Source: an uncultured Oscillospiraceae bacterium
GTDB lineage: Bacteria; Bacillota; Clostridia; Oscillospirales; JAAYXM01
Assembly (NCBI GenBank): GCA_934446465.1
Contig: CAKSEF010000002.1
Coordinates: 2,083 to 66,082, forward strand
Direction of reading: 5' to 3'
Length of the DNA stretch: 64,000 nucleotides
Shown: positions 905-22,975 of the stretch, in pieces
Layout of the letters: the number at the start of each line of letters is the position of its first letter
How positions within the stretch are numbered: the first letter of the stretch is position 1
Program-made: the position numbers and the translations under genes
Notes under the pieces: model-generated
The model's database searches: none
Seen by the model: only the letters and a program-made list of their open reading frames with translations
What the model was told of the DNA's origin: nothing

Positions 905-1798
905 GTGGAAACAAGGTGGTTGTATTCAACAAGCGAAGAATTTGAAAAACTCAGAGAAAAAGCAAACAGAACCTGCGTAATACCTATGGGATGCGTTGAA
1001 AAGCACAGCTTGCACTGTCCGCTCGGCACGGATATAATAAAAGGAAGCCACGTTGCTCACCTCGCATCACAGCTTGAAACCGTATGTATTTTCCCTGACT
1101 TTGTGTTTGGTGATGTGCCTTGCGGTGCTCATGCGAAGCGTCCGGCAGGATCAATATGCCTTGATGTGCGCACACAGATGCTTCTGCTCGAACAGCTGTG
1201 CGATGAGATAGCGGCAAACGGGTTCAATAAAATTCTTGTAGCAAATTCTCATGGCGGAAATCTTCCCTGGCTCCAGACATTTTCAAGAAACCTTGGAGGC
1301 AAACCGCATAAGTATGTTTTTGCATATACGCACATTCCTGAAATGATCCCGCGCAAAATGGGTGAAATTCTCCTTGAAAAAGGAACGGGTTCGATCCCGG
1401 AACTTGCACCCGAGGACGAAGAACTTATAATCAAATATCATAAAGAAAATATGCTAACCGGACATGCATGCATGAATGAAGCTGCGCTGACGATGGCAGT
1501 GGCCCCCGAATCCATACATCTTGACAGGCTTGGAATTGAGAGCGGGGCGAAGCGTGATATTCCGGAACTCCAAAAACTTATTGATGCGGACGTGAGAATA
1601 GCATCGGACGGATGGAGACATTTCTTTCCCGATTGGTATGAAGGTGACGATCCATACGGGCTTAATGAGCGCATAGCAAAAGCAACCGCGCGCCTTTCAA
1701 GCGAAAAGCTTGCAAAAACCTACAAGGCATTTAAGGAAGATGAATATCTCTTGCGTTGTGCAAAGGAAACATACTTTGATAAATCATATTTTGAATAA
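905..1798 (+). CDS. Creatininase (creatinine amidohydrolase/formamide hydrolase) family protein
   Basis: 297 aa with a GTG start. The motifs VIPMGCVEKHSLHCPLGTD and VANSHGGN match the metal-binding signature of the creatininase family. Confidence 0.8.
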   Translation: METRWLYSTSEEFEKLREKANRTCVIPMGCVEKHSLHCPLGTDIIKGSHVAHLASQLETVCIFPDFVFGDVPCGAHAKRPAGSICLDVRTQMLLLEQLCDEIAANGFNKILVANSHGGNLPWLQTFSRNLGGKPHKYVFAYTHIPEMIPRKMGEILLEKGTGSIPELAPEDEELIIKYHKENMLTGHACMNEAALTMAVAPESIHLDRLGIESGAKRDIPELQKLIDADVRIASDGWRHFFPDWYEGDDPYGLNERIAKATARLSSEKLAKTYKAFKEDEYLLRCAKETYFDKSYFE

Positions 1799-2009
1799 TT
1801 TGCGTTAGGGACAGATAATGGCATCCTAAGCACGGGTCCCTGTATGTTATCTCCTCCTCTTTTGACGGTGCCTGTCCGCAGAAACGTTGACGCAGACTTG
1901 CCCGCGACGGAAAATTACCGCTGCGCGCTTATGGTACGCCTTATAATCAGAGAGAAAATCACAGTTTGTGATTTTGATTTTATAAAATTAAAACAGGAGG
2001 TTTTTAAAA

Positions 2010-3875
2010 ATGAAAAAGCTTTTTTCAATTATTCTTATCACAGTAATGGTTATTTCCCTTGCTCCGGGAGTTTTTGCAGACGGAACATCAGCAACGGATG
2101 GATCAAATCTTGTCCGTGCGTACAACTTTGATTTTGGCGCGGCAGGATACACGGGTGTGGCAGGGCAGACGGGAACTTCGGAGATCGGGTATGAGACGCT
2201 TAAAATCTTTGGTGACCCGGAAGGAGAAATAAATCCCACATGGTCAAAAGCAGACGCACCGCAGTGGGTTGTTGACGGTCATGCCCGCGCAACGAATATT
2301 GCGCTTACCACGGTTGAAAGCGGGAATAAGCAGGCAAACGCGCTGTATTGGTCTGCGTTTGGTACGCGGGCATATCAGAACGGTGTCGCAACAAATACAC
2401 ATGCTGTGGCAATAAGACTTAAAATCGACAAGCCCGGAACATACATTCCCGAGCTTACATACCACGCGCGCCCGGATTTGTGCATATTTGATATTTATCT
2501 TGTGCCGGCCAACTCCGAAATCATGACACCTGCGAATAAAGGCTATGTAACGATCCACCAAACTAAAGGAGAAAACAACGCAAACTTATTAAATCGGGTC
2601 ATAAACAATGCGGCCGCTTATAAGCTCGGAACTCTTGATATGTATGCGAAAGAAGCGGGAAGAGTTTCCACTTATCTCATAGGAGAGCACGCATTGAATG
2701 CGTTCACCGTTACAGAAGAAACCAAAGGAGAATATTATCTGTTCTTCCGTACCAACGGCGTAAATGATATCTTGAAGAAAGAATACGGTAACGGTAACGG
2801 CGCTGCGATTAACGTGAATCTCTTTTCTTTCGGTCTTTATACAGAGGATACAGGGACGGAAGAACCGACCGTGCAGGAAAAGACAGAAGCAGAATTTACT
2901 CCTTCAACCGATGATTCTTATATCGGAGCTCCCGAGAAGGTAACTGTAACAACGCTTGCCCGCTATGGCGAGACATCTGCCGTTATCGGAACAAAGGATG
3001 TCTCCTATGGCGAAATTGCAACAGTTGATGCTGTTCCGAAAACCGTAACAAGGGAAGATGGCACATACAGCTTTTTTTGCTGGGCAAAAGGTCTTGAAGA
3101 CGGTGCAAGCAGGCAGATTCTTTCCACAAGCAATGCCGAAATCTCTTACAAGCCGCACGAAGGCGCAAACTATCTCATTGCAGTTTATGAAAAAGAGGGC
3201 GGGGCGAAGGAAGCTTTCTATAACAACAACGGTCAGCTTCTTACCGACCTTGCAATTGCGGATGGCGTTCTCCCCGCTCTTCCGGCAATGGCAGGCAGAG
3301 GAAACGCAACATCATGGATACAGCGCGGTACAAACAATGAGTTTGCAGGCGGGGCAACTGCCCCGACAAGCGGCGACATGGTCTTTATGGCAAAGTATGA
3401 TGAAATTGAGAACAACATCACAATAAACGGCAAAAGCTATTCTTACGGCGATGTTGTTTCCTGCAAGGACATTGTTGACAGCATGGAAAACTTCAGCTGC
3501 TTCACAAGAAAAATCGGTGATGCCGATGCCGAAATCATAAGCATTGACGAGAATTACTCTTTTGCCGCATACACCGATTGCACAATCGAGGCAGTTTGCG
3601 AGGGCCCGGTAGAGATCGCCAGTCCGAAAAAGATTGCGCTTTCCACCTTCTCGGTGGGTGATAGGCTCACTGCGATTATGGCAGAGTTCATCGGCTTTGA
3701 GAATGCCAAGGAAAAGGGCATTATGTTCGGCAGCAAGAAAATTGCAATGATAAGTAACAAAGTACAGTTTACAATAACAAACGGTACTGCTGCTGACGTT
3801 ACCGTAACAGGCTATGCAATAGTTGGAAATGACAAATACATCGACGGTAAAATCACCGTTGACGCCGCAAAATAA
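2010..3875 (+). CDS. Secreted multidomain protein: signal peptide, unannotated ~230-aa module, then B-repeat-like C-terminal half
   Basis: 621 aa with AGGAGG upstream of the ATG and signal peptide MKKLFSIILITVMVISLAPGVFA. Residues ~40-262 are identical to the protein at 6680. The C-terminal half carries F/Y-x-F/C-W ... A-V-Y type repeats that resemble Listeria-Bacteroides (InlB B-type) repeats. These repeats are shared with 57690-59999. Confidence 0.8.
   Translation: MKKLFSIILITVMVISLAPGVFADGTSATDGSNLVRAYNFDFGAAGYTGVAGQTGTSEIGYETLKIFGDPEGEINPTWSKADAPQWVVDGHARATNIALTTVESGNKQANALYWSAFGTRAYQNGVATNTHAVAIRLKIDKPGTYIPELTYHARPDLCIFDIYLVPANSEIMTPANKGYVTIHQTKGENNANLLNRVINNAAAYKLGTLDMYAKEAGRVSTYLIGEHALNAFTVTEETKGEYYLFFRTNGVNDILKKEYGNGNGAAINVNLFSFGLYTEDTGTEEPTVQEKTEAEFTPSTDDSYIGAPEKVTVTTLARYGETSAVIGTKDVSYGEIATVDAVPKTVTREDGTYSFFCWAKGLEDGASRQILSTSNAEISYKPHEGANYLIAVYEKEGGAKEAFYNNNGQLLTDLAIADGVLPALPAMAGRGNATSWIQRGTNNEFAGGATAPTSGDMVFMAKYDEIENNITINGKSYSYGDVVSCKDIVDSMENFSCFTRKIGDADAEIISIDENYSFAAYTDCTIEAVCEGPVEIASPKKIALSTFSVGDRLTAIMAEFIGFENAKEKGIMFGSKKIAMISNKVQFTITNGTAADVTVTGYAIVGNDKYIDGKITVDAAK
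2126..2790 (+). repeat. Copy 1 of a 665-bp perfect direct repeat (partner 6790-7454)
   Basis: The nucleotide sequence reads identically line by line. The antisense track ORFs 2244-2561 and 6908-7225 encode the same 105 aa. The encoded protein segments (FDFGAAGYTGVAG...NDILKKEYG) are identical. Confidence 0.9.
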
Positions 3876-3894
3876 ACCAAACAAACAATAAGAC

Positions 3895-3932
3895 AACCGC
3901 TCGGGAGGAATTTCTCCCGAGCGGTTTGTTTA
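3895..3932. terminator. Bidirectional intrinsic terminator between convergent genes
   Basis: The 13-bp stem AACCGCTCGGGAG / CTCCCGAGCGGTT (3895-3907 / 3914-3926) is followed by TTGTTT on the plus strand. It lies between the stop at 3875 (+) and the stop at 4028 (-). Confidence 0.7.
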
Positions 3933-4027
3933 AGAAAAAGTTGAAAAAGCATACACTGTATGACAAAACAATTTTGTCAACAGCTTTTATTGATCAGATT
4001 AGTGCCGAGCACCTTTTAAAAGAAAAA

Positions 4028-5800
4028 TTACATCGTATGAATATACATAAAATCATTCGCGGAGAGCCATTTGCACTTCTGCCCCTGAATAAGCTCGGGC
4101 TCAAGTTCTTCTATCACACTTATCTTGCCGTCGAGGTAATCGTTTATAACTCTTCCGACATGGCGCAAGCGCTCAATTGCCGCACCGTAGCGGCACATGA
4201 TATTCTCAAAGCCGTGTGCCTTATAATCGCGGTACCACACTTCACGGTGGAGAGTATGAAGCTTTTCAAAATCCGCAATGATTTCGGGGAGTTTATTATC
4301 AGCAAAGCTTCGGAGATATTCTTTATCCCCTGCCTTATAGCGGTTACGGAGATTTAAGTGAATTTCACACTTATGCAAGCATGCGCGAAATGCAGCGAGA
4401 ATGTATTCCGTATTTTCATACTTTTCAATAACGGCAATTGCATCCGTAAGATACTTTTTAGCCGCAGAAAGGTCAAAATCAAAGCACAGAAGGTTAATCA
4501 GCGGATCGCTCCAGAGAATGTGCTTTCCGGCGCGGATTGCACCGTCCTCACGGAAGAAGAAATCGCTTATTGCATGGGAAAGCTCTTCCGTCATGCCGGT
4601 TGTAAAGTGCGCCATTTCCCATATATCTTCTTTCGTGCAGTCTTCTCCCTTCCAGCAGTATTCGGAGAAGAGCGAAAGCTGCGGAAGTGCCAGCATATGG
4701 CTGGTTTCACAGCCGTCGTTTGACCAGATGGTAACTATAACCTCGGGAACGCCGCCGCGAAGCACCTCTTCCATAGCGGGCTTCATTGTGTTGTAGGTGT
4801 GGTCATAGTTCGGAACAAAGCCGTCCCACGTCCAGATGCCGCCACCGAAAACAACCGGACGGTTGAAGTTTTTGTGTTTTTCTATATTTATCTTATAAAA
4901 CTCGTTGTTTGTGTGGTAATAATCCCAGAAAACCATATCCGCATCGGGCATTGCGTCTATTGCATACTGCGGAACAACAACATGGGGCATATAATCCTCT
5001 TCCTTGCTCTTTTCAACGAGCGAGAAGTACATATCGCTCCACATCAACGGGCGGAAGCCGTATTTTTTGCAAAGACCGCAAACTCTGCCGAGATGCTCGG
5101 AAAAGATTTCAAAGCGGTCGCGCATACCGTGCTTGACAAGATACTGCCCGAGGCCGAGCCCCGCGGTTTCGTCACAGCCGATATGAATACGATTTGTGCG
5201 GAACGCAGAGCGCATGGTTGCAATGCAGCTTTCAATAAATTTATACGTTTTTTCCTCACCGACAAGAAGAACCTTTGCATTCTCGGCGATTTCGTCGTTT
5301 ACGGAATAACGCAAAAACTGCTCCATATGGCCCAATGTCTGTATGCAAGGAATTACCTCAATGCCAAGCTGCGCCGCGAAATCGTCAATTCCGCGAAGTT
5401 CTTCAACGGTATATCTTCCGCGCTGATAGCCGAGATAAGGATAATCCTTTACCTCATATGTGTCTTCCGTATAAAGCATCAGCATATTATAGCCGTGGGC
5501 AGCAAGATATTTTATGTATGTCTTTACCGACTCCGGACGCATAACGCCGCCGCGCGACATATCAAGCATTGCGCCAAGCGTTTTAAGCGAGGGTTGCTCG
5601 CAAATTTCAAAGCTTTTCCCGCCTTCGGAAATCTCTTTGGCGAGAAGCGTATATGCACGGCACATTGCGGGGATTGTGTTGCCTCCAACAGTTGCGTTTT
5701 CGCCGTCGTATTTTACATAAACACCGTTATACTCGGTTTCTGTAATGTTCTGCGGAAACGCAACGTCAAAAAGCTCTGTTATCATATTTTTTATTTCCAT
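4028..5800 (-). CDS. Glycoside hydrolase family 20-like beta-N-acetylhexosaminidase (cytoplasmic)
   Basis: 590 aa with no signal peptide. GAMLDMSRGG...HGYNMLMLYTEDTYE...IPCIQTLGHME...RIHIGCDET resembles the GH20 TIM-barrel core with its HxGxDE acid pair. Confidence 0.75.
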   Translation of the reverse strand: MEIKNMITELFDVAFPQNITETEYNGVYVKYDGENATVGGNTIPAMCRAYTLLAKEISEGGKSFEICEQPSLKTLGAMLDMSRGGVMRPESVKTYIKYLAAHGYNMLMLYTEDTYEVKDYPYLGYQRGRYTVEELRGIDDFAAQLGIEVIPCIQTLGHMEQFLRYSVNDEIAENAKVLLVGEEKTYKFIESCIATMRSAFRTNRIHIGCDETAGLGLGQYLVKHGMRDRFEIFSEHLGRVCGLCKKYGFRPLMWSDMYFSLVEKSKEEDYMPHVVVPQYAIDAMPDADMVFWDYYHTNNEFYKINIEKHKNFNRPVVFGGGIWTWDGFVPNYDHTYNTMKPAMEEVLRGGVPEVIVTIWSNDGCETSHMLALPQLSLFSEYCWKGEDCTKEDIWEMAHFTTGMTEELSHAISDFFFREDGAIRAGKHILWSDPLINLLCFDFDLSAAKKYLTDAIAVIEKYENTEYILAAFRACLHKCEIHLNLRNRYKAGDKEYLRSFADNKLPEIIADFEKLHTLHREVWYRDYKAHGFENIMCRYGAAIERLRHVGRVINDYLDGKISVIEELEPELIQGQKCKWLSANDFMYIHTM

Positions 5801-6268
5801 TGCTATTCTCCTTTTCTGTTGTCAAGTACATTAAAACACATCTTATGGATTTTTTTCGCATTATCGTACATTTATCATAAACTGTGGGTCGATAACTTTA
5901 TCTGTCAGTGTATCCTTCATATACATATAAACGTTATACAGAGCAAGAAGATTCCATGCTTCCAAAGTATCCTGACTGCGCTGTACAAGGTTTACCGGCT
6001 CATAAACGCCACGAGGCCGAATAAGCTCAATATCGTTGCCGTGAAGCCCGCCGATCTAACCGCTTGCAGCAGGATCTGATTCGTTTGCGAAAGCACGGAG
6101 TTTATCCTACGGGGATTTACGATATTGCGCGCCGGTATATAACGGACGGCAACCGGGCGACAGAAGCCGCCGCTGTCTGCGGTTCCGGCGGCTGTTCATT
6201 CCTTTGCCGCGCATACGTAAAAAGTATGTCTCTGTTCTGTTATTAAAAATAATTTCAAGGAGATAAAA

Positions 6269-6490
6269 ATGCGAATTATTATAGATGCAGACGGGGATCT
6301 CGGTGTTGATGTTTCCGTTTCGGCCGCAAAAAATTACGGGCTTTAAGTTCGTATTCTCTGTGATACGACACACATTTGATAAAGACGGTGCGGAAACTCA
6401 TATTTTGTCGCAAGAGACCTCCGGCACCACGGGAAATATTGAAACTGTGCGCCTGTGAACACAGATTAGCATCTGAAATCACCATACCCC
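6269..6490 (+). pseudogene. Decayed YaiI/YqxD (DUF188, UPF0178) family gene
   Basis: AAGGAG RBS, then ATG and MRIIIDADGD (family start is M.I.VDADACP), with a stop after 25 codons. Shifted frames still read FSVIRHTFDKDGAETHILSQE, similar to the family core. There are several stops and frameshifts. Confidence 0.4.
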
Positions 6491-6577
6491 TAAAAAATAC
6501 AGTTCATTATATGGGCAACTAGGTGAAATATAAGAAAACAGCTTGTTTTTCATGACTCACACGCGGCTGCACTTCCT

Positions 6578-6599
6578 AAAAATGTACAATATAGCGAAA
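6578..6599 (+). promoter_or_regulatory. Shared upstream motif AAAAATGTACAATATAGCGAAA plus extended -10 TGTTATAAT, upstream of the giant lyase-like gene
   Basis: Near-identical to 797-818. It is followed by TGTGTTATAAT about 20-25 nt downstream, with only a weak -35, which suggests activator dependence. Confidence 0.45.
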
Positions 6600-6679
6600 T
6601 ATACATCTTCTCTGTGTTATAATTTAATAAACGATATTGATTTGAATTTAGAGCAATATGGTATAAGGGGGGAATACGT

Positions 6680-9600
6680 ATGAAAGGGAAAATGAAGCGT
6701 TTACTTGGCGCACTGCTTTCTGTTGCTGTGTGTGTATCACTGTTTCCGTCTGTAACCTTTGCGGTTGAGCCGACAACACCGGTGATAAGCTTTGATTTTG
6801 GCGCGGCAGGATACACGGGTGTGGCAGGGCAGACGGGAACTTCGGAGATCGGGTATGAGACGCTTAAAATCTTTGGTGACCCGGAAGGAGAAATAAATCC
6901 CACATGGTCAAAAGCAGACGCACCGCAGTGGGTTGTTGACGGTCATGCCCGCGCAACGAATATTGCGCTTACCACGGTTGAAAGCGGGAATAAGCAGGCA
7001 AACGCGCTGTATTGGTCTGCGTTTGGTACGCGGGCATATCAGAACGGTGTCGCAACAAATACACATGCTGTGGCAATAAGACTTAAAATCGACAAGCCCG
7101 GAACATACATTCCCGAGCTTACATACCACGCGCGCCCGGATTTGTGCATATTTGATATTTATCTTGTGCCGGCCAACTCCGAAATCATGACACCTGCGAA
7201 TAAAGGCTATGTAACGATCCACCAAACTAAAGGAGAAAACAACGCAAACTTATTAAATCGGGTCATAAACAATGCGGCCGCTTATAAGCTCGGAACTCTT
7301 GATATGTATGCGAAAGAAGCGGGAAGAGTTTCCACTTATCTCATAGGAGAGCACGCATTGAATGCGTTCACCGTTACAGAAGAAACCAAAGGAGAATATT
7401 ATCTGTTCTTCCGTACCAACGGCGTAAATGATATCTTGAAGAAAGAATACGGTAGCGGTAGCGGCGCTGAGATTAACGCGAATCTCTTTTCACTGAAGCT
7501 TTATAACAAAGCGGATGTCGCGGTTCCTGCGCTCGCTTCGGCAACACTTTCGCTTGAAAGCACAACTATGACAGAGGGTGAGAGTGTACTCCCGAAACTT
7601 ACGCTTTTCCTTGAAAACGGAGACAACCCAAGTGCCGAAATGCTTTCGGGATACGAGATAAAATACGAAAGCAACAATCCTACGGTTGCTTCGGTAAATG
7701 AAAATAGCGGCGAAATTACGGCACTCAAAACCGGAAACGCCACAATCACAGTAACAGAGACCAAGTCCGGCGTAGCGGGCAAGTTGGACATCACAGTTGC
7801 GGGAAAGCCTTATCTTGAACGCTTACAGCCGAAATGGGAAAACTTCGTTCTTTTTGCGAATGACGACAAAAACTCCACTGCAGATCTTGGCATTCTTGCG
7901 GTGATGTCAAACGGCAAGAATATTGTTCCGGATGAGTATAAAATCACATACATAAGCGCAGACGAGAACATAGTTACCGTGGACAAAGGAACTATAACAG
8001 CCGTAGGCGTTGGAAAAACAACTGTTACCGCATCGGCAACAAACGAAAACGGCGAGCCGGTAAGTGTTACGGTAAACGCAGAAGTGCGCGGAGAGCTTGA
8101 TGGACTTATATACAACTTCAATGCAGCTTCCTACGGCAAAGACAAAGAAATTGCAATGGCTGATTTAACAAAGCTCGGATATGCCGAAAACGGCTCTGAC
8201 CCTTGGAAGGTCTTAAGCGGGGCAAACACCGTTTATTGGTTGTCTGTAACGGCTGATGAGAAAGTTGACCATCCATACGGCGCAAATTCTGCAACTAACG
8301 TTCTTGCATGGGGGATATGGGGATATCGCGCTGCAAGATATACAGGCGCCGAGATGAACAAGGAAGAAGGAACTTTTGAGGGTGGAACATACTCGGCACG
8401 TCAGGATGCGGCGGTAGCTGCGCTTATAAATATTACAAGAGCAGGTACGCTTGTTCCGGCAATATCATATGAGGCACGCAACACACTTTCGATTTTTGAC
8501 ACATATCTTATTCCTAAAACGGTTGTTGATGCAAGCTCTCATCCTGACCTTTCTGTCGGAACGGAAATCGCAAAGCTTCTCAGCTCAATAGACAAGGAAA
8601 AATATTTGATTGCAAAACACGATATGTACGACGGTTCACTTGAAGAGCAAGTTACGATTAACAAGCTTGATCGTTTTGGAAATATCGAGATAACCGAGAC
8701 GGGCGAGTATTATCTTATCTGGCAGGTGAACGGCATTAACGAAGCCTTGCAGGGGCCGGAAAACTTTACTTATCTAAACAACAACGTAAACTACAAACAT
8801 ACTATTTACGTAAACATTCATTCTTTCGGACTTTATCCTCTGCCGAAGACCGAGCTTTCTTCAACCGGTGCGCATACGGAAACGGAAGAGGTGTTTGAGG
8901 GCGACATCGTGCGGCTCATTGCAACGCCGGAGCTTGCAGACGGAAAAACGGTAAACACACCTGCAATTATAAGCACATTTACTTCTCTTGATGAAGAAAA
9001 AGCAACGATAAACGGCGAATATCTCATTGCAAAAAAAGCAGGAACCGTTAAAGTCAAGGTTGATTCACGCATCAGCGGAAGCGAGGACGTTGTAACTGAA
9101 TATGTTGATATCGAAATTCTCCCCGAAAGCATAACAGACATCTCCGTTACTGCCGGCGGCAGTAAAAATATCCGACTTACGGACAAGAAGAATGATACCG
9201 TTCCGCTTTTTGTTACGCCTATAAGCAACCTCGGAAACAAACTTCCGACAGAAGAAATGATATTTACCGCAAACGCTCTCACTCCTGAGGTTGCAGACAT
9301 TATAAACGGAGATACAATCCTTCCCGTTACTGAGGGTGAGGCTAAATTCAATGTTATCGTAACAATAGGAGAAAGAACTATCGAACGCGAAGCAACGCTT
9401 CTTGTCGTAAAGGGCAAGAGCCGCGCATCGTACATGACAAAAGAAAAAGCAGAAGCCGCGCGCGAAAACATCAAGAAATACAATTGGGCGAAAAAGGAAG
9501 CAGACGGCGCAATAGCGCAGGCAGACAGATTTGTGGACAACTTGGATATTCTCTATAACCTTATAGCTTCCGAGGGTATTCCGCGAGGAATAGATGTTGG

Positions 9601-12600
9601 TGCCGTATCTGACCCGAATCTCGGATTTTGCCGCTTCTGTGGCGTGAAGATTTCCGCAAAATACGGTTCACCGCCATGGGTTGTCAATGCGATTTCCCGT
9701 CCGTGGAAGATTCAGTGTCCGGATTGCAAGCGGCTTTTCCCGTCAAATGATTTTAAAAGCTTTTACGAGCTTGGGCTTAACGAATACCGCGAATTTGAGC
9801 GTTCCCGCGCATTGGCACGACACCATGCGCTTATTCACCACGGCGATGCATATGCCGTTTGTGATTGTACACCACCGGCGGATGAATGGACAAACGAATG
9901 GTATTCATACTACGGATACGGTGATGAGAATGGATATCTCTATAACGCCCTTTACAAAAATGTTGACCTTTCAAAGGTGGATACATTAAATGCAAATCTG
10001 AGATTGCGCCCGGGAGAGACTCAGGAAACGTGGGGCGTTGATGACGGATACGGTTACGTTCCGCGAAAGGAAGACGGAACAGCATATCAAGCCGGCTCGC
10101 GCGAAGAGCGACATACATATATCGCGGAATATCTCCACTACGGTATATGGCGCGGCGGCGCGGTTGTAAACGCAATCCGCTATTGCTCGGATGCTTACTT
10201 CTATACCGGTAATATAAAGTACGGAAGAGTTGCGGCAATTCTTCTTGACCGCACGGCAGATTTTTACCGCGACTTTGACCGCTCGCACTGGGGTAACTGG
10301 GTTAATAACTCCGACGGAGGTTCGGGACTGGGAAAGATACTCGGTAACATCTGGGAAGGTACGAATATGAAGACATTCTTCGCCGCTTATGATAAGGTGT
10401 TCGAGTGTTATGACGATCCGTTTGTCGTTGAGTATTTGAGCAAAAAGTCAAAAGAAATAAAGATGAACTACGCGAAGAACACACCGTCGCAGATCAGAAC
10501 AAACATTGAGGACGGAATTCTGCGCGGCGCACTTGAAGCACTTCCCGGCTGCTTTATCTCCGGTAACTTTGGATACCCTCAGAGTGCAAATGCAATGGCA
10601 GCGGTAGTTCTCGATACTATGCCCGATACCAAATACTGGCTTGATTATCTTATGGCACCGGGCTGGTCGCGTTCCGCTCCGAGTCTCGGCGGCGGAATAA
10701 ATGCACAGCTTGTAAATGATGTTGATGCAGACGGTCAGGGAAATGAGGGCTCGAAATATAACATTGACTGGCATACAACACTCATCGGTATACAGGAATA
10801 TCTTAACGGTTATGATGCTTATGTTGCGGCAAACCTTTACAATAATCCGAAGTTTGTAAAGATGTTTTATTCCAACATCCCGCTTGTTACGGGTAACCAC
10901 TCTGCGAACATCGGTGATACGTTCACTACTATGAGTAAAGACCAGTGGTACAATAAGAATCAGCTTGTTATGGCTGTTAAGTACTTTGATGATCCGCGCT
11001 TTGCACAGTTGCTTTATCTTGTAAACGGTAAGACATCCGAAGGACTGCGTTATGACATATACGAAAGAGACCCGGAGCGCCTTGCGGACGAAGTTCAGGC
11101 AATTATTGACAGGCTGGGCGAGATATCGCTTGACTCTGAGGTTATGACAAACTTCGGATATGCAATATTGCGCGACGGTAATAATTACTCTGATTCTCTC
11201 ACTCCGACGGCAAAGGATACAACGAGAAATGTGTGGATGTACTTCGGAACAAGTGCCGGTCATGCCCACAAAGATACGCTTAATCTCGGTATGACGGCAT
11301 TCGGTCTTGAATATCTCCCGGATCTTGGTTATCCGGAGGAAACATCATATACACCTAACCGTCTTCAGTGGGTAGGTACGACGCTTTCGCACAATACTGT
11401 TACGGTTAACGAACAGGCAGTTAAATCTCTGGATGAACCGAGAGGAGAGTCTCTGCACTTTGACCACAACGAAACAATTCAGCTTATGGATGTTTCCGCA
11501 CCGTATGTGAGCGAGGAAACGGAGGAATACCGCAGAAGTGTTATAACCGTCCATGTTGATGACGACAATTCGTACGCAGTTGATTTCTTCCGCGTTCTCG
11601 GGGGAGATACTCACCTCTATTCTTTTCATGCCGCATCAAATGAGATAGCAAAGACAACGGGACTTGATTTCACGCTCACAGAGGACGAGAACGGAAACTA
11701 TATTTCCGGTTCTCAACTTGACGAAAACGGCAATTACAAAGGCACATATGCCGGACGTGACGCAAAGTATATTAAGGATGAGGTAACGGGAGCGGTTCGC
11801 GCATATACGGAGGATGCAAGCTTGAACGATAACGAGGTCATCCTTGAGGCTGAGTGGGGGAAGGATCCAAATTCACCAAACGAGTGGTTCTACAATACGA
11901 TTTTCCCACGCGGATACACATGGCTGAAAAACGTTGATCGCGACATCGAACCTGAGAATAAGGTTGAGGTCGATTTCAAAATAAAAGACTTCAATAAGCA
12001 CCTAAGAGACGGCTCTAACCTTCATTTGTATATGACGGTGCTCAACTCAGGAAATATAGCGAAAGGTGCAGATGCTGAAATTTCGATTGCTGACGGATTG
12101 CCGCCGGATAAGTCCGGAAACAAGAATATCGATAAATTGAAGTATGTTCTTATTAAAAATCGGGGAGAGAATCTTGACACAACATTCACTACTGTTCTTG
12201 AACCATACCGCAAGACGCGTTATATCAAGTCAGTAGACGAGCTTCCGATGACGGTTACAGGCGGTGAGGAACAGGCCGGCGATTCCAGCCGCGCTGTAAG
12301 AGTTGAGCATACAAGCGGCAGAGTTGACTATATCCTTTACGCGACCAATACCAACGTAACTTATGAAATAACGCTTAACGATGAAAGTAAGCTATCGTTC
12401 CGAGGCTTTGTGGGCGTATATACCGTGCAGAACGGAGTAATTACCTATAAATATCTCCACGATGGAGATATTCTCGGCGGAGAGTATGGAAAAGCATCAA
12501 TAGATGGTATTGTTTCCAAGTTTACCGATACGCTTGAACTTAAAAACTACATCTGGATTACGCCGAAAGCGCCTCTTTCTGATGATGAGCTTGCACTTCT

Positions 12601-13774
12601 CAGCGGTAAATACATATTTGTAAACAACGGCACAGAAAACAGAGGCGGAGCATGGCGCATCAAGGCGGCAGAGCGCGACGGAAACGATATTAAGCTTGAC
12701 GTAGGGGATGTTACGACAATCCGCAGATTCAAGGATGCAATTGACGAGGAGGCAGGCTTTAAATACACTATAGCAAAAAATCAGTCTGCGAGAATTCCGC
12801 TGACAACAATAGTAGATAACGATCCCGTGTTTGCACCGATAAGAGACAACCTTACGACAAATGCCGGAAGCACAATAGCAGTTACTGTCAGCGCCGCAAG
12901 TCCGGATACGGGAAACGCATCCGGTATAAGATACGTCGGCGAGACTATTCCGAGCGGTGCAAGAATAGATGCGCAGACCGGCGTATTCACGTGGAAGCCG
13001 GACAACTCACAAGTCGGAACAAGCCATGTTGCGATAACGGCAATTGACGATTACGGCAGGCAGAGTACAGCTCACTTCTATATTAAAGTTTATGGTTCCA
13101 CAACAGGCGGATCTGCAACAGACAGTGCGGAAAATCCGTCGGATGGCAGAGACGACAACAGCGGCGGCTCCGCACCTGCACCCGATAAGGAAGATACCAA
13201 TGCGGGGGACGGAGGTTCCGACGCCCACGACAAAATGCAATTCACAGACCTTTCCAACCACGCGTGGGCAGCAGATGCAATTAACGCTCTTGCCGCAGAC
13301 GGCATAATCCGTGGAACATCGGAAACAACATTTTCGCCTGCAGCCAACATTACGCGTGCGGACTTTGTACTGTTGCTTGTTCGTGCATTCAAGTTGACAT
13401 CGGATAACACGGAAAATTTCGCGGATGTTCAGGCTTCGGACTACTTTGCGTCTGAGATTGCAATAGCACGCAACAACGGGATTATCAGCGGAATAGGCGA
13501 AAATAAATTCGCACCTCGCAATTTCATCACCCGTCAGGATATGATGGTAATAGTATACCGCGTTATGCAGAAGCTCGGTGCAGAATTCGGCATTTATGAC
13601 AAACCGGAATATCCCGATTTCACCACCGTTGCCGATTACGCGCGTGTCGGGGTATCCGCGCTCATAGTCACCGGCCTTGTAAACGGTAAGGGCGGCAAAA
13701 TCGCGCCCACAGACTACACCACCCGTGCAGAGGTTGCGGTGCTCATCAAACGCATATTGGAACACATAAAATAA
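6680..13774 (+). CDS. Giant cell-wall-anchored heparinase II/III-like polysaccharide lyase family protein (2364 aa)
   Basis: RBS AAGGGGGG and signal peptide ...VTFA. The unannotated module occurs twice (aa ~36-275 and ~475-720), separated by Big_2-like Ig repeats (SVNENSGEITALKTGNATITV). The heparinase II/III-like region has an N-terminal helical part (NIKKYNWAKKEADGAI...) and a C-terminal signature (SAGHAHKDTLNLGMTAFGLEYLPDLGYPE...TLSHNTVTVNEQ). After that come a putative Ig/cadherin-like domain (GVFTWKPDNSQVGTSHVAITAIDDYG) and a low-complexity linker. Three SLH domains end the protein (13235-13771: FTDLSNHAWAADAINALAADGIIRG...). Confidence 0.9.
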   Translation: MKGKMKRLLGALLSVAVCVSLFPSVTFAVEPTTPVISFDFGAAGYTGVAGQTGTSEIGYETLKIFGDPEGEINPTWSKADAPQWVVDGHARATNIALTTVESGNKQANALYWSAFGTRAYQNGVATNTHAVAIRLKIDKPGTYIPELTYHARPDLCIFDIYLVPANSEIMTPANKGYVTIHQTKGENNANLLNRVINNAAAYKLGTLDMYAKEAGRVSTYLIGEHALNAFTVTEETKGEYYLFFRTNGVNDILKKEYGSGSGAEINANLFSLKLYNKADVAVPALASATLSLESTTMTEGESVLPKLTLFLENGDNPSAEMLSGYEIKYESNNPTVASVNENSGEITALKTGNATITVTETKSGVAGKLDITVAGKPYLERLQPKWENFVLFANDDKNSTADLGILAVMSNGKNIVPDEYKITYISADENIVTVDKGTITAVGVGKTTVTASATNENGEPVSVTVNAEVRGELDGLIYNFNAASYGKDKEIAMADLTKLGYAENGSDPWKVLSGANTVYWLSVTADEKVDHPYGANSATNVLAWGIWGYRAARYTGAEMNKEEGTFEGGTYSARQDAAVAALINITRAGTLVPAISYEARNTLSIFDTYLIPKTVVDASSHPDLSVGTEIAKLLSSIDKEKYLIAKHDMYDGSLEEQVTINKLDRFGNIEITETGEYYLIWQVNGINEALQGPENFTYLNNNVNYKHTIYVNIHSFGLYPLPKTELSSTGAHTETEEVFEGDIVRLIATPELADGKTVNTPAIISTFTSLDEEKATINGEYLIAKKAGTVKVKVDSRISGSEDVVTEYVDIEILPESITDISVTAGGSKNIRLTDKKNDTVPLFVTPISNLGNKLPTEEMIFTANALTPEVADIINGDTILPVTEGEAKFNVIVTIGERTIEREATLLVVKGKSRASYMTKEKAEAARENIKKYNWAKKEADGAIAQADRFVDNLDILYNLIASEGIPRGIDVGAVSDPNLGFCRFCGVKISAKYGSPPWVVNAISRPWKIQCPDCKRLFPSNDFKSFYELGLNEYREFERSRALARHHALIHHGDAYAVCDCTPPADEWTNEWYSYYGYGDENGYLYNALYKNVDLSKVDTLNANLRLRPGETQETWGVDDGYGYVPRKEDGTAYQAGSREERHTYIAEYLHYGIWRGGAVVNAIRYCSDAYFYTGNIKYGRVAAILLDRTADFYRDFDRSHWGNWVNNSDGGSGLGKILGNIWEGTNMKTFFAAYDKVFECYDDPFVVEYLSKKSKEIKMNYAKNTPSQIRTNIEDGILRGALEALPGCFISGNFGYPQSANAMAAVVLDTMPDTKYWLDYLMAPGWSRSAPSLGGGINAQLVNDVDADGQGNEGSKYNIDWHTTLIGIQEYLNGYDAYVAANLYNNPKFVKMFYSNIPLVTGNHSANIGDTFTTMSKDQWYNKNQLVMAVKYFDDPRFAQLLYLVNGKTSEGLRYDIYERDPERLADEVQAIIDRLGEISLDSEVMTNFGYAILRDGNNYSDSLTPTAKDTTRNVWMYFGTSAGHAHKDTLNLGMTAFGLEYLPDLGYPEETSYTPNRLQWVGTTLSHNTVTVNEQAVKSLDEPRGESLHFDHNETIQLMDVSAPYVSEETEEYRRSVITVHVDDDNSYAVDFFRVLGGDTHLYSFHAASNEIAKTTGLDFTLTEDENGNYISGSQLDENGNYKGTYAGRDAKYIKDEVTGAVRAYTEDASLNDNEVILEAEWGKDPNSPNEWFYNTIFPRGYTWLKNVDRDIEPENKVEVDFKIKDFNKHLRDGSNLHLYMTVLNSGNIAKGADAEISIADGLPPDKSGNKNIDKLKYVLIKNRGENLDTTFTTVLEPYRKTRYIKSVDELPMTVTGGEEQAGDSSRAVRVEHTSGRVDYILYATNTNVTYEITLNDESKLSFRGFVGVYTVQNGVITYKYLHDGDILGGEYGKASIDGIVSKFTDTLELKNYIWITPKAPLSDDELALLSGKYIFVNNGTENRGGAWRIKAAERDGNDIKLDVGDVTTIRRFKDAIDEEAGFKYTIAKNQSARIPLTTIVDNDPVFAPIRDNLTTNAGSTIAVTVSAASPDTGNASGIRYVGETIPSGARIDAQTGVFTWKPDNSQVGTSHVAITAIDDYGRQSTAHFYIKVYGSTTGGSATDSAENPSDGRDDNSGGSAPAPDKEDTNAGDGGSDAHDKMQFTDLSNHAWAADAINALAADGIIRGTSETTFSPAANITRADFVLLLVRAFKLTSDNTENFADVQASDYFASEIAIARNNGIISGIGENKFAPRNFITRQDMMVIVYRVMQKLGAEFGIYDKPEYPDFTTVADYARVGVSALIVTGLVNGKGGKIAPTDYTTRAEVAVLIKRILEHIK
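6790..7454 (+). repeat. Copy 2 of the 665-bp perfect direct repeat (partner 2126-2790)
   Basis: See the copy at 2126-2790. The offset is 4664 bp in direct orientation and the repeats bracket the GH20 gene. Confidence 0.9.
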
Positions 13775-14595: not shown

Positions 14596-15381
14596 ATGCA
14601 GATCGGAGCACAACTTTACACAGTACACAACCGCATAAAAACTCTTGAGGATTTTTCAGCAGCCCTCAAAAAAGTAGCAGACATCGGATACAGATCCGTT
14701 CAGGTATCCGGTACTTGTCCGTATGAGCCGGAATGGCTCCGTGACGAGCTGGCAAAAAATAATCTCGTCTGCGCAATGACACACATCGCTCAGAAGCGTA
14801 TTATTGAGGAGACCGAGGATGTTGTAAAACAGCATGCGGTTTTCGGATGTAAGCACATCGGTATCGGCGGGATGCCGATTGAAATGCGTGGCAGTGTAGA
14901 AGGTTATCAGGAATTTAAAAAGACTTATCTTCCGGCAGCGGAGAAAATTCGCGATCTCGGTGCAAAGTTTCTTTATCACAACCACTCGTTTGAGTTTGAA
15001 AAATTAGACGGCAAGGACGTTATTGAGCGTATTTTAGAGGACTTCCCGGAGGACAGCATTGACTTTACGCTTGACCTTGGTTGGGCAGCAGATGCCGGTA
15101 AGGATGTTGTAGCGCTTATTGATATGCTCAAAGGTCGTCTTTCCCGTATTCACCTTAAGGACTTTGCAGACAAGCCGGAAGACGGAAGTATAGATACTTC
15201 TGTATATCTCCGCCCGATTTTTGAGGGAAAGCTCCCATATGAGGACTACATAAACGCCCTTTCAAAGGTTGGCTGTGAATATATGCTCGTTGAGCAGGAT
15301 TATTGCTATGACGAGGACGAGTTTGAATGTCTCAGGAGAAGCTATGAGAATGTAACAAAGCGTTTCCCGAACGTAAAGTAA
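14596..15381 (+). CDS. Sugar phosphate isomerase/epimerase (xylose isomerase-like TIM barrel)
   Basis: 261 aa with RBS AAGGAGAG. MQIGAQLYTV...IGYRSVQVSG...YHNHSFEFE...RIHLKD...LVEQD fits the AP_endonuc_2/xylose-isomerase-like barrel pattern. Confidence 0.8.
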   Translation: MQIGAQLYTVHNRIKTLEDFSAALKKVADIGYRSVQVSGTCPYEPEWLRDELAKNNLVCAMTHIAQKRIIEETEDVVKQHAVFGCKHIGIGGMPIEMRGSVEGYQEFKKTYLPAAEKIRDLGAKFLYHNHSFEFEKLDGKDVIERILEDFPEDSIDFTLDLGWAADAGKDVVALIDMLKGRLSRIHLKDFADKPEDGSIDTSVYLRPIFEGKLPYEDYINALSKVGCEYMLVEQDYCYDEDEFECLRRSYENVTKRFPNVK

Positions 15382-15448
15382 ATCAGTTATTTAAGCTTCG
15401 CCGCGGGGCGAAACATATAAAAACAGAGAATCGAAGGAGACATTAAAA

Positions 15449-16615
15449 ATGGATAAGGTAAGACTTGGTATTATCGGTTATGGCGCAATGGGTAAACCGG
15501 TTACTAAATGGCTCGTTTCGGAAAAGCAGAGCCCTGAAATTGATGTAACCGCAATTTGCGACTTTGATGCAAAAGCTCTTGACTCCGCAAAAGAAACGTA
15601 TAAGGATACATCGATTAAATTTTTCGCTGATGCGGAAGCAATGATGGATTCCGGTGAGATTGATGCAGTCTACATTGCAGTTCCCCACTATGACCATCCG
15701 GTTCTTGCAATAAAAGCTTTCAAGAGAGGACTCCATGTTATGCTTGAAAAGCCGGCAGGCGTTTATACAAAGGCAGTCCGCGAAATGAACGCTGAAGCAG
15801 AAAAAGCAGGCGTTAAGTTCGGTATGATGTTCCAGAGCCGCACTCAAGCTATTTATCGCAAGGCAAAAGAAATCCTTTCCTCCGGCAAAATGGGTCAGAT
15901 CAGAAGTGTAAACTGGCTCATCACAAAATGGTTCCGATCACAGAAGTATTACGATTCGGGCGTATGGCGTGCAACGTGGACGGGCGAAGGCGGCGGTGTT
16001 CTTCTTAACCAGTGTCCGCATCAGCTCGACCTTCTCCAGTGGTTCTGCGGTATGCCGGAAGAAATTTATGCAAAGTGTTCGGTTGCTCAGTGGCACGATG
16101 TTGAAATTGAAGATGATGTTGTTGCGATACTTAAATACAAGAACGGAGCAATGGGAAGCTTTATTACATCAACCGGTATCAATCCGGGAGCAAACCGCCT
16201 TGAAATTGCTCTCGATAAGGGATGCCTTATCATTGAGAATGGTAAGCTTACTGTCAAAGAACTTAATGTTGACCTTTCCACATACACCGGAAAGGAACCG
16301 GAACATAGAGTCCCGGCTCCAAAGGTTACAACAACAAACTACGAGTTTCCGGAAGAAAACACAGAAGGACACTCACTTATGCTCAGCGCATTTGCAAGCG
16401 CGATTATCCGCGGAACAGATCTTATTGCAGGAGCTCAGGACGGCTTAAATGAGCTTACTCTCTCCAACGCAATGTACCTCTCCTCATGGACAGATTCTAC
16501 AATCAAGCTTCCGATGGATGAGGATCTCTTCTACGAAAAGCTTAAGGCTCTTCAGGCAACCTCAAAGCACAAGGTCGCAGAGGGCGAAGCAATTGACGCT
16601 TCAAGCATTTTCTAA
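15449..16615 (+). CDS. Gfo/Idh/MocA family oxidoreductase
   Basis: 388 aa with an N-terminal Rossmann motif VRLGIIGYGAMGK and the EKP motif (VMLEKPAG). Confidence 0.9.
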   Translation: MDKVRLGIIGYGAMGKPVTKWLVSEKQSPEIDVTAICDFDAKALDSAKETYKDTSIKFFADAEAMMDSGEIDAVYIAVPHYDHPVLAIKAFKRGLHVMLEKPAGVYTKAVREMNAEAEKAGVKFGMMFQSRTQAIYRKAKEILSSGKMGQIRSVNWLITKWFRSQKYYDSGVWRATWTGEGGGVLLNQCPHQLDLLQWFCGMPEEIYAKCSVAQWHDVEIEDDVVAILKYKNGAMGSFITSTGINPGANRLEIALDKGCLIIENGKLTVKELNVDLSTYTGKEPEHRVPAPKVTTTNYEFPEENTEGHSLMLSAFASAIIRGTDLIAGAQDGLNELTLSNAMYLSSWTDSTIKLPMDEDLFYEKLKALQATSKHKVAEGEAIDASSIF

Positions 16616-16643
16616 ATATAGCTTACTAATCATCATTCACTGT

Positions 16644-16695
16644 AAGAAGAGGACTCGTGGATTTTTTTCGTGTGTCCTCTTCTTCTTATTATTTG
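16644..16695 (+). terminator. Intrinsic terminator-like hairpin after the oxidoreductase gene
   Basis: The 11-bp stem AAGAAGAGGAC / GTCCTCTTCTT (16644-16654 / 16674-16684) has a long loop and is followed by the T-rich CTTATTATTTG. Confidence 0.5.
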
Positions 16696-16761
16696 ATTGA
16701 TTTCGCGTGCATTCAAGCGTATAATAAGTACAATAATTACATATTGGAGGCAGATTCTGAA

Positions 16762-17631
16762 ATGAAATACGAAGAATATGTAACTCGGCTCGGGTTTACC
16801 CCGGAGGAGATGGAAATCATTTCGCGCACAGACAAAAAATGCAGGAATGAATTCTCGGATGTTTTTTCCCTCGCCCGCACGGAATACGACAAGGGAGACG
16901 AATCCTTTACCGAGTATCTTTTTGCGTTTGCAGAAAGAACAGACATTCCCGTAAATACGTTAAATCTCTATATTTACCTTCGTTTTATTGAGGATACTTA
17001 TAAAGAATATGAAAGGCGCGGAATAGGTGAGGACATACTCATTGAGACGATGAGCGGTTTTTCGACTGTCAGCCGCCTTGCGTTAGATGGAGGGCAGGAC
17101 TTCGGATTTCCGCAGCCGGTTTATCGCTCGTGGTTCCGCCGCGAGTTAGACTGCATGATATACCGACTGGGACGTCTTGAATTTGAAATAGTTGATGCGC
17201 CATGTGATATGGAGGTCGACGGGAAGAGCCTAAAAAAGGGCGAGACGTGTATTTCTGTTCACATTCCGCGTTCCGCAAGTTTTGATGAGGACGTTTGCGA
17301 AATATCATACGCCCATGCACGTGAATTCTTCAAAAAGTATTATAATATGGACAACATAATCTTTATGTGCCATTCATGGATGCTCCATCCGTGGCTGTGT
17401 GAGGTACTTCGTGAGACTTCTGCAATCGTAAAATTCCAAAAGAAGTTTAAAATTATACAGGTTGATGAAACTGATGTCGGCATCGGCTGGATTTTCAGCA
17501 CGGGAGTCGGTCTCGGGACGAAGGTTGAATCCATAGAGGAATATCCCGAGGATACATCGCTTCGCCGTGCGGCAAAGCAGAGACTGCGCGAGGGCAAAAT
17601 GCTCGGCGCAGGGCTTGGTATAAGGTTGTAA
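16762..17631 (+). CDS. Hypothetical protein, possibly a DUF5596/GNAT-like acyltransferase-domain family member
   Basis: The track ORF starts at 16657 inside the terminator. The ATG at 16762 (MKYEEYVTRLGFTPEEMEII) is the more plausible start. The pattern RLGRLEFE...HIPRS...FMCHSWMLHPWL resembles what I recall of this family. The function call is weak. Confidence 0.45.
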   Translation: MKYEEYVTRLGFTPEEMEIISRTDKKCRNEFSDVFSLARTEYDKGDESFTEYLFAFAERTDIPVNTLNLYIYLRFIEDTYKEYERRGIGEDILIETMSGFSTVSRLALDGGQDFGFPQPVYRSWFRRELDCMIYRLGRLEFEIVDAPCDMEVDGKSLKKGETCISVHIPRSASFDEDVCEISYAHAREFFKKYYNMDNIIFMCHSWMLHPWLCEVLRETSAIVKFQKKFKIIQVDETDVGIGWIFSTGVGLGTKVESIEEYPEDTSLRRAAKQRLREGKMLGAGLGIRL

Positions 17632-18006
17632 CGCAAAATCAAGGCTTCAAAACGCAACACATGAGAATGTGAGAATTTTTGAAAAAAGGTGCATTCGCCT
17701 GTCTTTGTTCATAATGTTGCATGGGATGTTGAATTTTGTTGTTAGAAACTGAAAAGTTATTGCACAGGAAGTTTTTGATGAAATCAAATTTCGCCGCAAT
17801 TCGCAGAGAGCTTTGGGTGTGTTGAGCCCGCTAATCCGAAGTATGCAGCACTTCTGACAAGAGAAGATGTCTGCACGGATCATACCGATGATAGCATATA
17901 TGCGGAAATATTTCTCGCCCGAATATAAGGTGCTTTCAGAGAGAGTTGGCGCAGATTCGGAACCGTATTTTATATATTTTTTCTCATCAACGGGAACATA
18001 ACCAAC

Positions 18007-18041
18007 AAGCAGCCGCCCGACGGCGACTGCTTGCTTTTTTA
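18007..18041 (+). terminator. Orphan intrinsic terminator
   Basis: The stem AAGCAGCCGCC / GGCGACTGCTT (one mismatch) is followed by GCTTTTTTA. It lies 375 nt downstream of the nearest plus-strand stop, at the end of a stretch with no convincing ORF. Confidence 0.5.
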
Positions 18042-18089
18042 TTCTGACTCTTTTTATAAACAATTGATAAAGAGCATTTTCTGTTATTG

Positions 18090-19163
18090 TCAATACTCCC
18101 CCAGCGCACGGGTAACAATTCTTCCTATTCCGCGCGCCATACGGAGAAAACCGAGGTCTGTCGGGTGGCAATCGTCAACCGTGCAGGAATTTGCAAACTT
18201 GCCGTCAAAAAGAGAACTACCGTAAACAAAATAAACATTTTCATCCCCGTTTTTTAACGCGTTGAGATAGGTTTCAAGAATTACCGAGCGCTGCGTCTTG
18301 CTCCGGAATCTTTTTGAGTCATTCGGAGCGGAAACAAATATAACGGGAAGGCTCGGATGCTTTTCGCGAATTTTAATGAATCCACGCTCATGCGTGCTTT
18401 TCAGATGGGCAACATCCGGTGCATTATAGTCATAATCATACACAAACGCACTCATCGAAAGCGAGGCAATATAATCCATTATCGCGTCCTCACCCTTTGC
18501 ACTTCCGGAAAAGCCGAGGTTTATGTAATCATAGTTGAGAGCTTGCGAAATAAGCGCCGGGTATGCATTTCCGGGGCGCGATGCACATCCGCCCCGGGTT
18601 ATGGACGAGCCGTAGTACACAACCGGTGTTTCGTATTTATATTTGCGCCCGTGGGTAAGCTTCGCTCCATTCCGTATCCCGACATACAGTTCGTTTACCG
18701 GATTATACAACGGGAAGTTGATTGTGATTTCCCGCATTTTTTTATCTCCAAAATGACAGATGGAAGTGTATCCGTCTGTCATGTCATAAGGCGGAACAAA
18801 CGTCTTTGTAAAGATATCGTGCCCGTCGCGGGAGACATACATATCAAAACCTGCAACACCCGTGAGCGGCATATGCGCAAAATGCGTAACGCTCGGAACG
18901 GATGCGCGGATTGCAATGTACTCTGAATCGGTAGAAAAGCGGACTCTACCGCCGGAAGTGTGGGTGTGAAGGATTGTAACCTCATCGCTTGTTGCACGGG
19001 CAACGGACTTTGGCAGACGGCGAAAAACGTCCTCGCCTTTTGCGTTGTAAAGTCCGTAAAGATCAAACGGATCTTCCTTTACGCTTCGGAAAATACAGTC
19101 CGGTGCGTCTATCTCCGCTGCAACTGCTAAATTTTTATCTACCTGAGAAATATCCTTTGACAT
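18090..19163 (-). CDS. SGNH/GDSL-type hydrolase (esterase) with N-terminal beta domain
   Basis: 357 aa. Block I is VVYYGSSITRGG, block II is LGFSGSAKGE and block V is DDCHPTDLGF (DxxH). Confidence 0.8.
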   Translation of the reverse strand: MSKDISQVDKNLAVAAEIDAPDCIFRSVKEDPFDLYGLYNAKGEDVFRRLPKSVARATSDEVTILHTHTSGGRVRFSTDSEYIAIRASVPSVTHFAHMPLTGVAGFDMYVSRDGHDIFTKTFVPPYDMTDGYTSICHFGDKKMREITINFPLYNPVNELYVGIRNGAKLTHGRKYKYETPVVYYGSSITRGGCASRPGNAYPALISQALNYDYINLGFSGSAKGEDAIMDYIASLSMSAFVYDYDYNAPDVAHLKSTHERGFIKIREKHPSLPVIFVSAPNDSKRFRSKTQRSVILETYLNALKNGDENVYFVYGSSLFDGKFANSCTVDDCHPTDLGFLRMARGIGRIVTRALGEY

Positions 19164-22046: not shown

Positions 22047-22087
22047 GCACCTTCGGGCTAAAATATGCTCGGAGGTGCTTTTAATTG
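22047..22087 (+). terminator. ychF terminator hairpin whose 3' arm contains the RBS of the next gene
   Basis: The stem GCACCTTCGGGC / GCTCGGAGGTGC (two G-U pairs) is followed by TTTTAATT. The GGAGGTG inside the 3' arm lies 6 nt upstream of the TTG start at 22085. Confidence 0.55.
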
Positions 22088-22855: not shown

Positions 22856-22923
22856 CATATTCAATTATTTTGTCAAAACGGAGGCAGAAAACACATTAAG
22901 CATATAGTATAATCTACAGTGTC

Positions 22924-22957: not shown

Positions 22958-22975
22958 GGAAAGGAGGTGTGTACA

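Follow-up and report, generated by a model that had tools for sequence, protein, structure and literature searches.

Probable gene conversion of an N-terminal module between two neighbouring genes of an Oscillospiraceae glycan-degradation locus

How do two neighbouring genes of largely different make-up come to carry a stretch of DNA that reads the same base for base? The question is raised by a 64-kb window of contig CAKSEF010000002.1 from an uncultured Oscillospiraceae bacterium (the window is the whole stretch of DNA that was analysed, and all coordinates are positions in it unless another locus is named). Here a gene for a small secreted protein of 621 aa and a gene for a cell-wall-anchored giant of 2364 aa, with a GH20 beta-hexosaminidase-like gene lying between them, share 665 bp directly behind unrelated signal peptides; this arrangement of three genes had been described in an initial annotation of the window and is confirmed. 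We read the shared tract as the footprint of interlocus (ectopic) gene conversion, in which the first module of the giant was copied over the module of the small protein and the two copies have probably been rehomogenised since, and we place the probability of this reading at roughly 0.8. The locus is a new example of a known process, gene conversion, acting on a rare and undescribed domain that resembles carbohydrate-binding modules (CBMs).

2010-3875, forward strand: gene for the small secreted protein, 621 aa, putative recipient of the conversion (open reading frame [ORF] list, translation)
6680-13774, forward strand: gene for the giant cell-wall-anchored protein, 2364 aa, putative donor (ORF list, Pfam, translation)
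2126-2790, forward strand: repeat copy A, 665 bp without mismatch, encoding aa 40-261 of the small protein (in-register comparison, self-BLASTN)
2791-2827, forward strand: 3' decay zone of copy A, with four mismatches to copy B, three of them (2791, 2797, 2815) fixed differences between the paralogs in all three strains compared below
6790-7454, forward strand: repeat copy B, 665 bp without mismatch, encoding aa 38-259 of the giant (in-register comparison, self-BLASTN)
7455-7491, forward strand: 3' decay zone of copy B (comparison of copies and strains)

The identical tract and the mosaic small gene

In-register comparison at an offset of 4664 gives one uninterrupted identical run, 2126-2790 against 6790-7454 (665/665 bp), so that the perfect direct repeat reported at the outset is upheld, and self-BLASTN of the window extends it to 2126-2827 and 6790-7491 (702 bp, 99.43%, 698/702). 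All four mismatches, at 2791, 2797, 2806 and 2815, lie in the 37 bp at the 3' end; mismatches spread through the tract were looked for, and between the two copies in the window there are zero. An exact match of this length in 64 kb cannot be due to chance, the longest chance match being roughly 16 nt by our own estimate. The boundaries are unequal, as the initial annotation had noted: the 5' edge is sharp, with unrelated DNA before 2126 and 6790, while at the 3' edge the likeness decays across the 37 bp and then ends, in-register identity being at random level both before 2126/6790 and after about 2828/7492. The runners-up among the repeats of the window reach 87% over 191 bp and 82% over 104 bp, and none besides the tract exceeds 87%; other paralogous segments are thus indeed far more diverged. 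The twin antisense ORFs at 2244-2561 and 6908-7225, once adduced as support, are present in the ORF list and are by-products of the repeat itself.

The tract makes up most of a module of about 237 aa that runs from FDFGAAGY to NLFS(F/L)xL and follows directly on the signal peptide in both proteins.

2127-2837, forward strand: whole N-terminal module of the small protein, aa 40-276, FDFGAAGY to NLFSFGL (delimited from motif to motif; AlphaFold2 [AF2] pLDDT 93.5)
8111-8833, forward strand: second, old copy of the module in the giant, aa 478-718, about 28-30% identical to module 1 and outside the conversion (tblastn, motif delimitation)

The small protein consists of a signal peptide (called by eye from the hydrophobic N-terminus), the N-terminal jelly-roll module, a linker and a conserved, beta-rich C-terminal part. 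It has no match in Pfam or NCBIfam; its relatives bear an InlB B-repeat-like domain, Flg_new_2. Full-length orthologs from uncultured Oscillospiraceae are 34-53% identical to it, and a scan of GTDB species representatives returned only distant relatives (31-42%). Alignment with these orthologs reveals a mosaic. The N-terminus (MKKL...NLVRAYN) is of the small type, like that of orthologs P0002 and P0003; the segment aa 40-261 matches the window's own giant at 100%, a giant ortholog from another sample (L002) at 75% (amino acids) and the nearest small ortholog at only 43%; and after EYG the small type resumes with NVNLFSFGLY (NLFSFELY in P0002, NLFSLKLY in giants). At the nucleotide level the small gene of a further locus (L003) aligns with that of the window at 1866-2185 (70%) and 3063-3859 (75%) only, and no nucleotide similarity is found across the module. 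The tract thus groups with giant modules and both the signal peptide and the C-terminal part with small orthologs, a plain phylogenetic discordance.

Which gene gave the module and which received it? In the giant ortholog of L002 the same module comes after a signal peptide of the giant type, and in nucleotides this ortholog is 73.5% identical to the window giant over the module and 72.2% over the full alignment (upstream DNA and the N-terminal part of the giant); since the module has diverged as much as its surroundings, it is native to the giant. We note that this L002 gene (positions 1159-3398 of that Logan contig) has an in-frame TAG in module 1, after ...PNALY, and a change of frame near 3090, and is either a pseudogene or affected by assembly error. 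No module of the small type is present in the 64-kb window: both loci carry the giant type and the donor has kept its own, as non-reciprocal transfer leaves them. On these alignments the direction is from giant to small. The initial annotation spoke of a transplanted N-terminal module. The copying between genes stands, but the recipient was not without a module of its own: all examined orthologs in the small and giant families bear one at this N-terminal position, and the event was therefore a replacement rather than an insertion. The further claim that the two genes are unrelated outside the tract holds only in part, as aa 536-719 of the giant belong to the second module copy and are 30% identical.

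The same observations bear on a non-homologous insertion of the domain, or the horizontal gain of a small gene that was already chimeric. The abrupt 5' edge and the patchy, rare occurrence of the module family would suit such an origin. Yet the segment sits at the homologous module position, its junctions fall at homologous motifs with neither length change nor filler, and the donor, 100% identical, lies 4.7 kb away in the same genome, so that we attach very little credence to it.

Strain comparison and the course of the exchange

Three strains were compared, namely the window and two metagenome scaffolds found by cluster look-up and colinear with it; relative to the window, L001 has 72 mismatches in 13.9 kb (99.5%) and L014 has 19 (99.9%). 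Their samples are SAMEA4765846 and SAMEA4765669. A scan of JGI metagenomes for more strains returned one irrelevant 1-kb fragment only. Both L001 and L014 have the same two-copy layout and the same 3' boundary, and in each the copies are identical over 665 bp. Within the tract five sites vary among the strains (2206, 2253 and 2585 in L001; 2324 and 2735 in L014), and at every one (5/5) each strain has the same base in both copies, which is the signature of concerted evolution but also the pattern that bubble-popping by short-read assemblers predicts. Single-copy single-nucleotide polymorphisms (SNPs) occur at 2801 and 2806 only, just outside the tract, and the SNP density within it (0.45%) equals the background. 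The paralog differences at 2791, 2797 and 2815, and those from 2828 on, are the same in all three strains; thus the founding event and its 3' end predate the strain split. The comparison with related strains that had been advised for this locus therefore yields the two-copy layout together with shared tract SNPs, and the proposal of recent gene conversion is borne out by the mosaic small gene and by the same layout in three assemblies.

That the same mutations arose independently in both copies is not credible. The shared SNPs reflect either homogenisation after the strain split, with at least two further conversions, or collapse by the assembler. The latter would leave a single older conversion, before the split, with the identity and the shared SNPs made by bubble-popping in short-read assemblies. 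The records are metagenome scaffolds or contigs, the 3' differences shared by three strains place the event before the split, and the absence of any single-copy SNP from the tract is what collapse guarantees; the numbers of visible sites that we estimate under either model, about 3.5 and 0.9, agree with the 3 and 2 observed. On the other side, three independent assemblies pass through both copies without a contig break, where equal-coverage bubbles often break contigs; just past the tract, at 1-25 bp, the assemblers retained positions where the copies differ by one base; and the differences within the tract scale with genome-wide divergence (three in L001, two in L014), albeit in small numbers. 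Collapse, moreover, itself needs near-identical copies to act on. Because the assemblies cross both copies unbroken and keep differences right beyond the tract, real identity is favoured, with fair though not full assurance, over an assembly product, and we regard an older conversion with subsequent collapse as possible but doubtful.

A cruder error of assembly would be a chimera, with the module truly present in one gene and its other copy threaded in wrongly. Misassembly is a familiar hazard wherever a repeat exceeds read length. Here the tract keeps the frame of two intact ORFs, a module stands at exactly this position in every ortholog of either family, the flanks of each copy are of the correct family type on both sides, and the same structure recurs in three assemblies from different samples; almost no credence can be given to this explanation.

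The course of events that we envisage for gene conversion is as follows. Ancestrally, both families would have had a signal peptide and a jelly-roll module of about 237 aa, probably glycan-binding to judge from its modelled fold. Module 1 of the giant would then have been copied non-reciprocally over the small protein's own module, the two being neighbouring, co-oriented genes, with junctions in two short islands common to all modules, FxFxAAGY on the 5' side and N-L-x-S-F-x-L on the 3' side. Non-crossover homologous recombination with the paralogous module 4.7 kb away as template is the best-supported route, and it is presumably RecA-dependent. As the replaced module was probably only about 45% identical to the donor in amino acids, short homology within the two motif islands would have had to serve for the founding event. 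Later repeated rehomogenisation is probable, by which new mutations would end up in both copies or in neither, and the process may be ongoing.

Several points weigh against this reconstruction. With probably only about 45% amino-acid identity to its donor, the replaced module was too divergent for RecA to exchange in the ordinary way. The three assemblies all look like metagenome scaffolds or contigs, and a de Bruijn assembler collapses a near-identical repeat and pops SNP bubbles, so that single-copy SNPs look shared or absent; if short-read assemblies did so here, both the 'perfect' and the 'ongoing' character of the identity are unproven. The warning of short-read collapse given in the initial annotation is therefore a valid one and limits what perfect identity proves.

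Crossover between the same two copies would have a different outcome, which involves two further features.

3895-3926, no strand: GC-rich palindromic hairpin between the convergent small and GH20 genes (self-BLASTN), probably a bidirectional terminator
4028-5800, reverse strand: GH20 beta-hexosaminidase-like gene, flanked by both repeat copies (Pfam Glyco_hydro_20, Glyco_H_20C_C)

Such a crossover would delete the 3' part of the small gene, the hairpin and GH20. Both 665-bp tracts are in codon phase 2, and the deletion product would therefore be in frame, leaving a hybrid giant of 2366 aa. While the geometry of the deletion foreseen for this repeat is thus sound, the deletion allele was seen in none of the three strains (window, L001, L014) and is presumably selected against.

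Recurrent exchange of the module, its fold and its locus

Is the exchange peculiar to this genome? In both families the module is less conserved than the rest of the protein, at 22-53% identity against 43-75% for the C-terminal part in the small family, and at 42% for module 1 against about 70-75% for the core in the giants. Loci L012 and L013 are 82-86% identical in nucleotides through GH20, the 5' end and the C-terminal part of the small gene, and the giant, and have no nucleotide similarity over aa 47-270 of the small protein; the break comes at FDFGAAGY, and similarity is back at YVN(L/I)DSF. Their small modules are 36% identical, against 90% for the C-terminal parts and 89% for module 1 of the giants. 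The giant of L016 has a giant-type signal peptide followed by a small-type module 1 (68% amino-acid and 73.5% nucleotide identity to the small protein of L015, whose own small and giant modules are about 28% identical), and the homology between the L016 giant and the L015 small protein spans exactly motif to motif. Judged by these matches, that exchange ran from small to giant. The module has accordingly been exchanged within or between the two families at least three times, in both directions and with the same breakpoints (FxFxAAGY and N-L-x-S-F-x-L), and the process looks recurrent within this species and across the family.

Further variation was seen in the same loci. A reciprocal swap between L015 and L016, considered on account of crossed nucleotide matches, is only half supported, the small module of L016 being only 44% identical to module 1 of the L015 giant. 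The L015 giant (positions 3243-11798 of that locus) has three module copies in 2851 aa and its L016 relative two in 2407 aa, and the L016 small gene (4070-5917 there) is split into ORFs of 493 aa and 73 aa; module number and gene integrity therefore vary in the family.

Three independent exchanges with the same two breakpoints, in a module that evolves much faster than the rest of both proteins, might also be the work of programmed specificity-switching cassettes in the manner of pilE/pilS or vlsE, with conserved DNA flanks directing frequent exchange. Several observations speak against it. The window has no silent donor cassettes (tblastn with the module finds the two genes and the 30% internal copy only), and no invertase or recombinase adjoins the locus, nor do inverted repeats. 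The codons of FDFGAAGY and NLxSF differ freely at synonymous sites among loci, which rules out a recombination anchor at the DNA level in these motifs and places the conservation in the protein; the shared breakpoints are therefore attributed to protein-level conservation and selection for intact domains. There is likewise no intense nucleotide skew of the kind found in GRINS, repeats that promote conversion (PMC8256042). Neither GC skew (up to 0.27) nor AT skew (up to 0.25) over the repeat stands out from that of the genes around it, and a GRINS-like skew was accordingly rejected. A programmed cassette system thus seems improbable.

What the module does is suggested by its fold. No Pfam-A or NCBIfam model matches it, which gives it no place in a described CBM family, and only 28 clusters match at E<=1e-3 (HMMER against 1.84 billion protein cluster representatives), comprising small proteins (about 520-650 aa), giants (about 2400-2900 aa) and a few others. 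As the AF2 model of the whole small protein was of middling quality (pLDDT 67) and its Foldseek matches diffuse, a model of the module alone was used (pLDDT 93.5, pTM 0.92); it is a beta-jelly-roll with helical insertions. Foldseek matches to the PDB are weak and consistent (E about 2e-4, identity 8-13%, probability up to 1.0; TM 0.55-0.66, normalised to small targets such as MiXBM) and include MiXBM (7ehg), a Paenibacillus xanthan lyase (6f2p), CBM4/6/35/36, and MAM and Eph ligand-binding domains. On the strength of this model, it is probably a glycan-binding module of an undescribed, CBM/MAM-like family. The soluble small protein and the wall-anchored, lyase-like giant share it and hence would be expected to bind the same ligand.

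The giant is composed of a signal peptide, module 1, Big_2, module 2, an Ig-like region, a heparinase II/III-like region, He_PIG and three SLH domains. Its core is predicted to be a heparinase II/III-like polysaccharide lyase, Hepar_II_III_C scoring 32.4 bits over aa 1523-1655 against a Pfam gathering cut-off of 24; a sequence search of the PDB with the core found no solved relative. The small gene, GH20, the giant and an AraC-type regulator also occur together in L012 and L016, which suggests that the four are a functional unit kept by selection.

6578-6632, forward strand: promoter-like element of 55 nt upstream of the giant gene, common to 797-851 and to L002 1056-1101

This element of about 55 nt (AAAAATGTACAATATrGCGAAA...TGTTAyAAT, with a TGn-extended -10-like box) stands 50-100 nt upstream of a creatininase-family gene and of the giant gene, and also upstream of the giant ortholog of another species; it is missing upstream of the small gene. 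A role as a common promoter or regulator-binding site is possible, the neighbouring AraC-type regulator being one candidate to act there. Its copy before the giant lies in the stretch that separates this gene from GH20 (5801-6679), where strain SNP density is about four times that of the genes (19 differences, 2.2%), with a cluster at 6662-6667 directly before the giant start codon.

Other features of the window were seen in passing. Just upstream of the creatininase-family gene (905-1798), 455-747 is a remnant copy of it: 455-556 matches the 5' end at 82% (compare 852-955) and 557-747 the 3' end at 87% (compare 1634-1824), about 680 bp of the middle are gone, and the remnant is kept in all three strains. 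It looks like an old tandem duplication followed by internal deletion, a further sign of recombination at the locus. After the giant, 14596-19163 encodes a xylose-isomerase-like TIM barrel, a GFO/IDH/MocA oxidoreductase, a GNAT-like acyltransferase and an SGNH/GDSL esterase, predicted functions that would fit a locus processing acetylated amino-sugar glycans. From 22085-27856 and beyond there follow an M23 peptidase gene, a phage terminase large subunit (23241-24557) and large ORFs without a Pfam match, which probably form a prophage or phage-like island on the downstream side of the glycan locus. A near-perfect palindrome of 41 nt (93%) at 53754-53794, between convergent ORFs, is probably a terminator.

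Significance and relation to known systems

The locus is a clean natural case of domain-precise conversion, with donor, recipient, both junctions and three strains in hand, and shows a way in which Gram-positive gut bacteria can re-tool a targeting module in secreted glycan-degrading proteins while catalytic and anchoring parts are left untouched. The fast turnover of a rare, uncharacterised CBM-like family (28 clusters) suggests diversifying selection on ligand choice. In practical terms, the locus is a trap for short-read assembly and SNP calling and a place inherently prone to deletion, where loss of GH20 could give rise to a hybrid giant. A tentative and rather doubtful extension is that the module serves as a ligand-specificity cassette, recurrently exchanged both ways and with domain precision between the small secreted partner and the wall-anchored giant lyase of one glycan-utilisation locus. 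If so, conversion would be the means by which selection maintains or restores the match in binding specificity between two co-operating proteins, even as the module itself diversifies fast. It would be a matching of specificities through conversion within an uncharacterised domain family of gut Oscillospiraceae. The understanding of recombination is unchanged by any of this: the value lies in a well-documented case of tidy but ordinary bacterial gene conversion. A literature search on gene conversion of CBMs found nothing pertinent.

How does the module compare with domains of known function? It shares its predicted fold with the beta-jelly-roll CBMs (CBM4/6/35/36, MiXBM, xanthan lyase) and with MAM and Eph domains, and in the xanthan lyase/CBM proteins, as here, the domain is an N-terminal appendage on a polysaccharide-lyase-like enzyme. 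It differs from them in being about 100 aa larger, in its helical insertions, in its low identity (8-13%) and in lacking a Pfam match.

As to process, three systems invite comparison. Neisseria pilE/pilS and Borrelia vlsE are systems of cassette-based antigenic variation. In these, as in the present locus, gene conversion between conserved flanks repeatedly overwrites a variable part of a surface or secreted protein; unlike them, our locus has no silent cassette arrays, no flanks conserved at the DNA level and no sign of high-frequency switching. In assembly-line polyketide synthases (PKSs), gene conversion occurs between the modules of multimodular enzymes and is promoted by GRINS (PMC8256042). 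There too paralogous modules group together against orthologous ones and exchange respects domain boundaries, whereas here GRINS-like skew is lacking and the partners are two separate genes of a glycan-degradation locus, not modules of one synthase. The remaining parallel is with the tufA and tufB genes of Salmonella, for which gene conversion limited by the bounds of homology has been shown experimentally (PMC5485169). Both cases involve non-reciprocal homogenisation of two homologous stretches on one chromosome, with a tract bounded by the limits of homology and copies more alike within a genome than orthologs are between genomes. Where the tuf genes are whole duplicates, however, what is homogenised here is one domain of two otherwise unrelated multidomain genes, in direct repeats 4.7 kb apart around a third gene, and the module that was replaced was probably only about 45% identical to its replacement.

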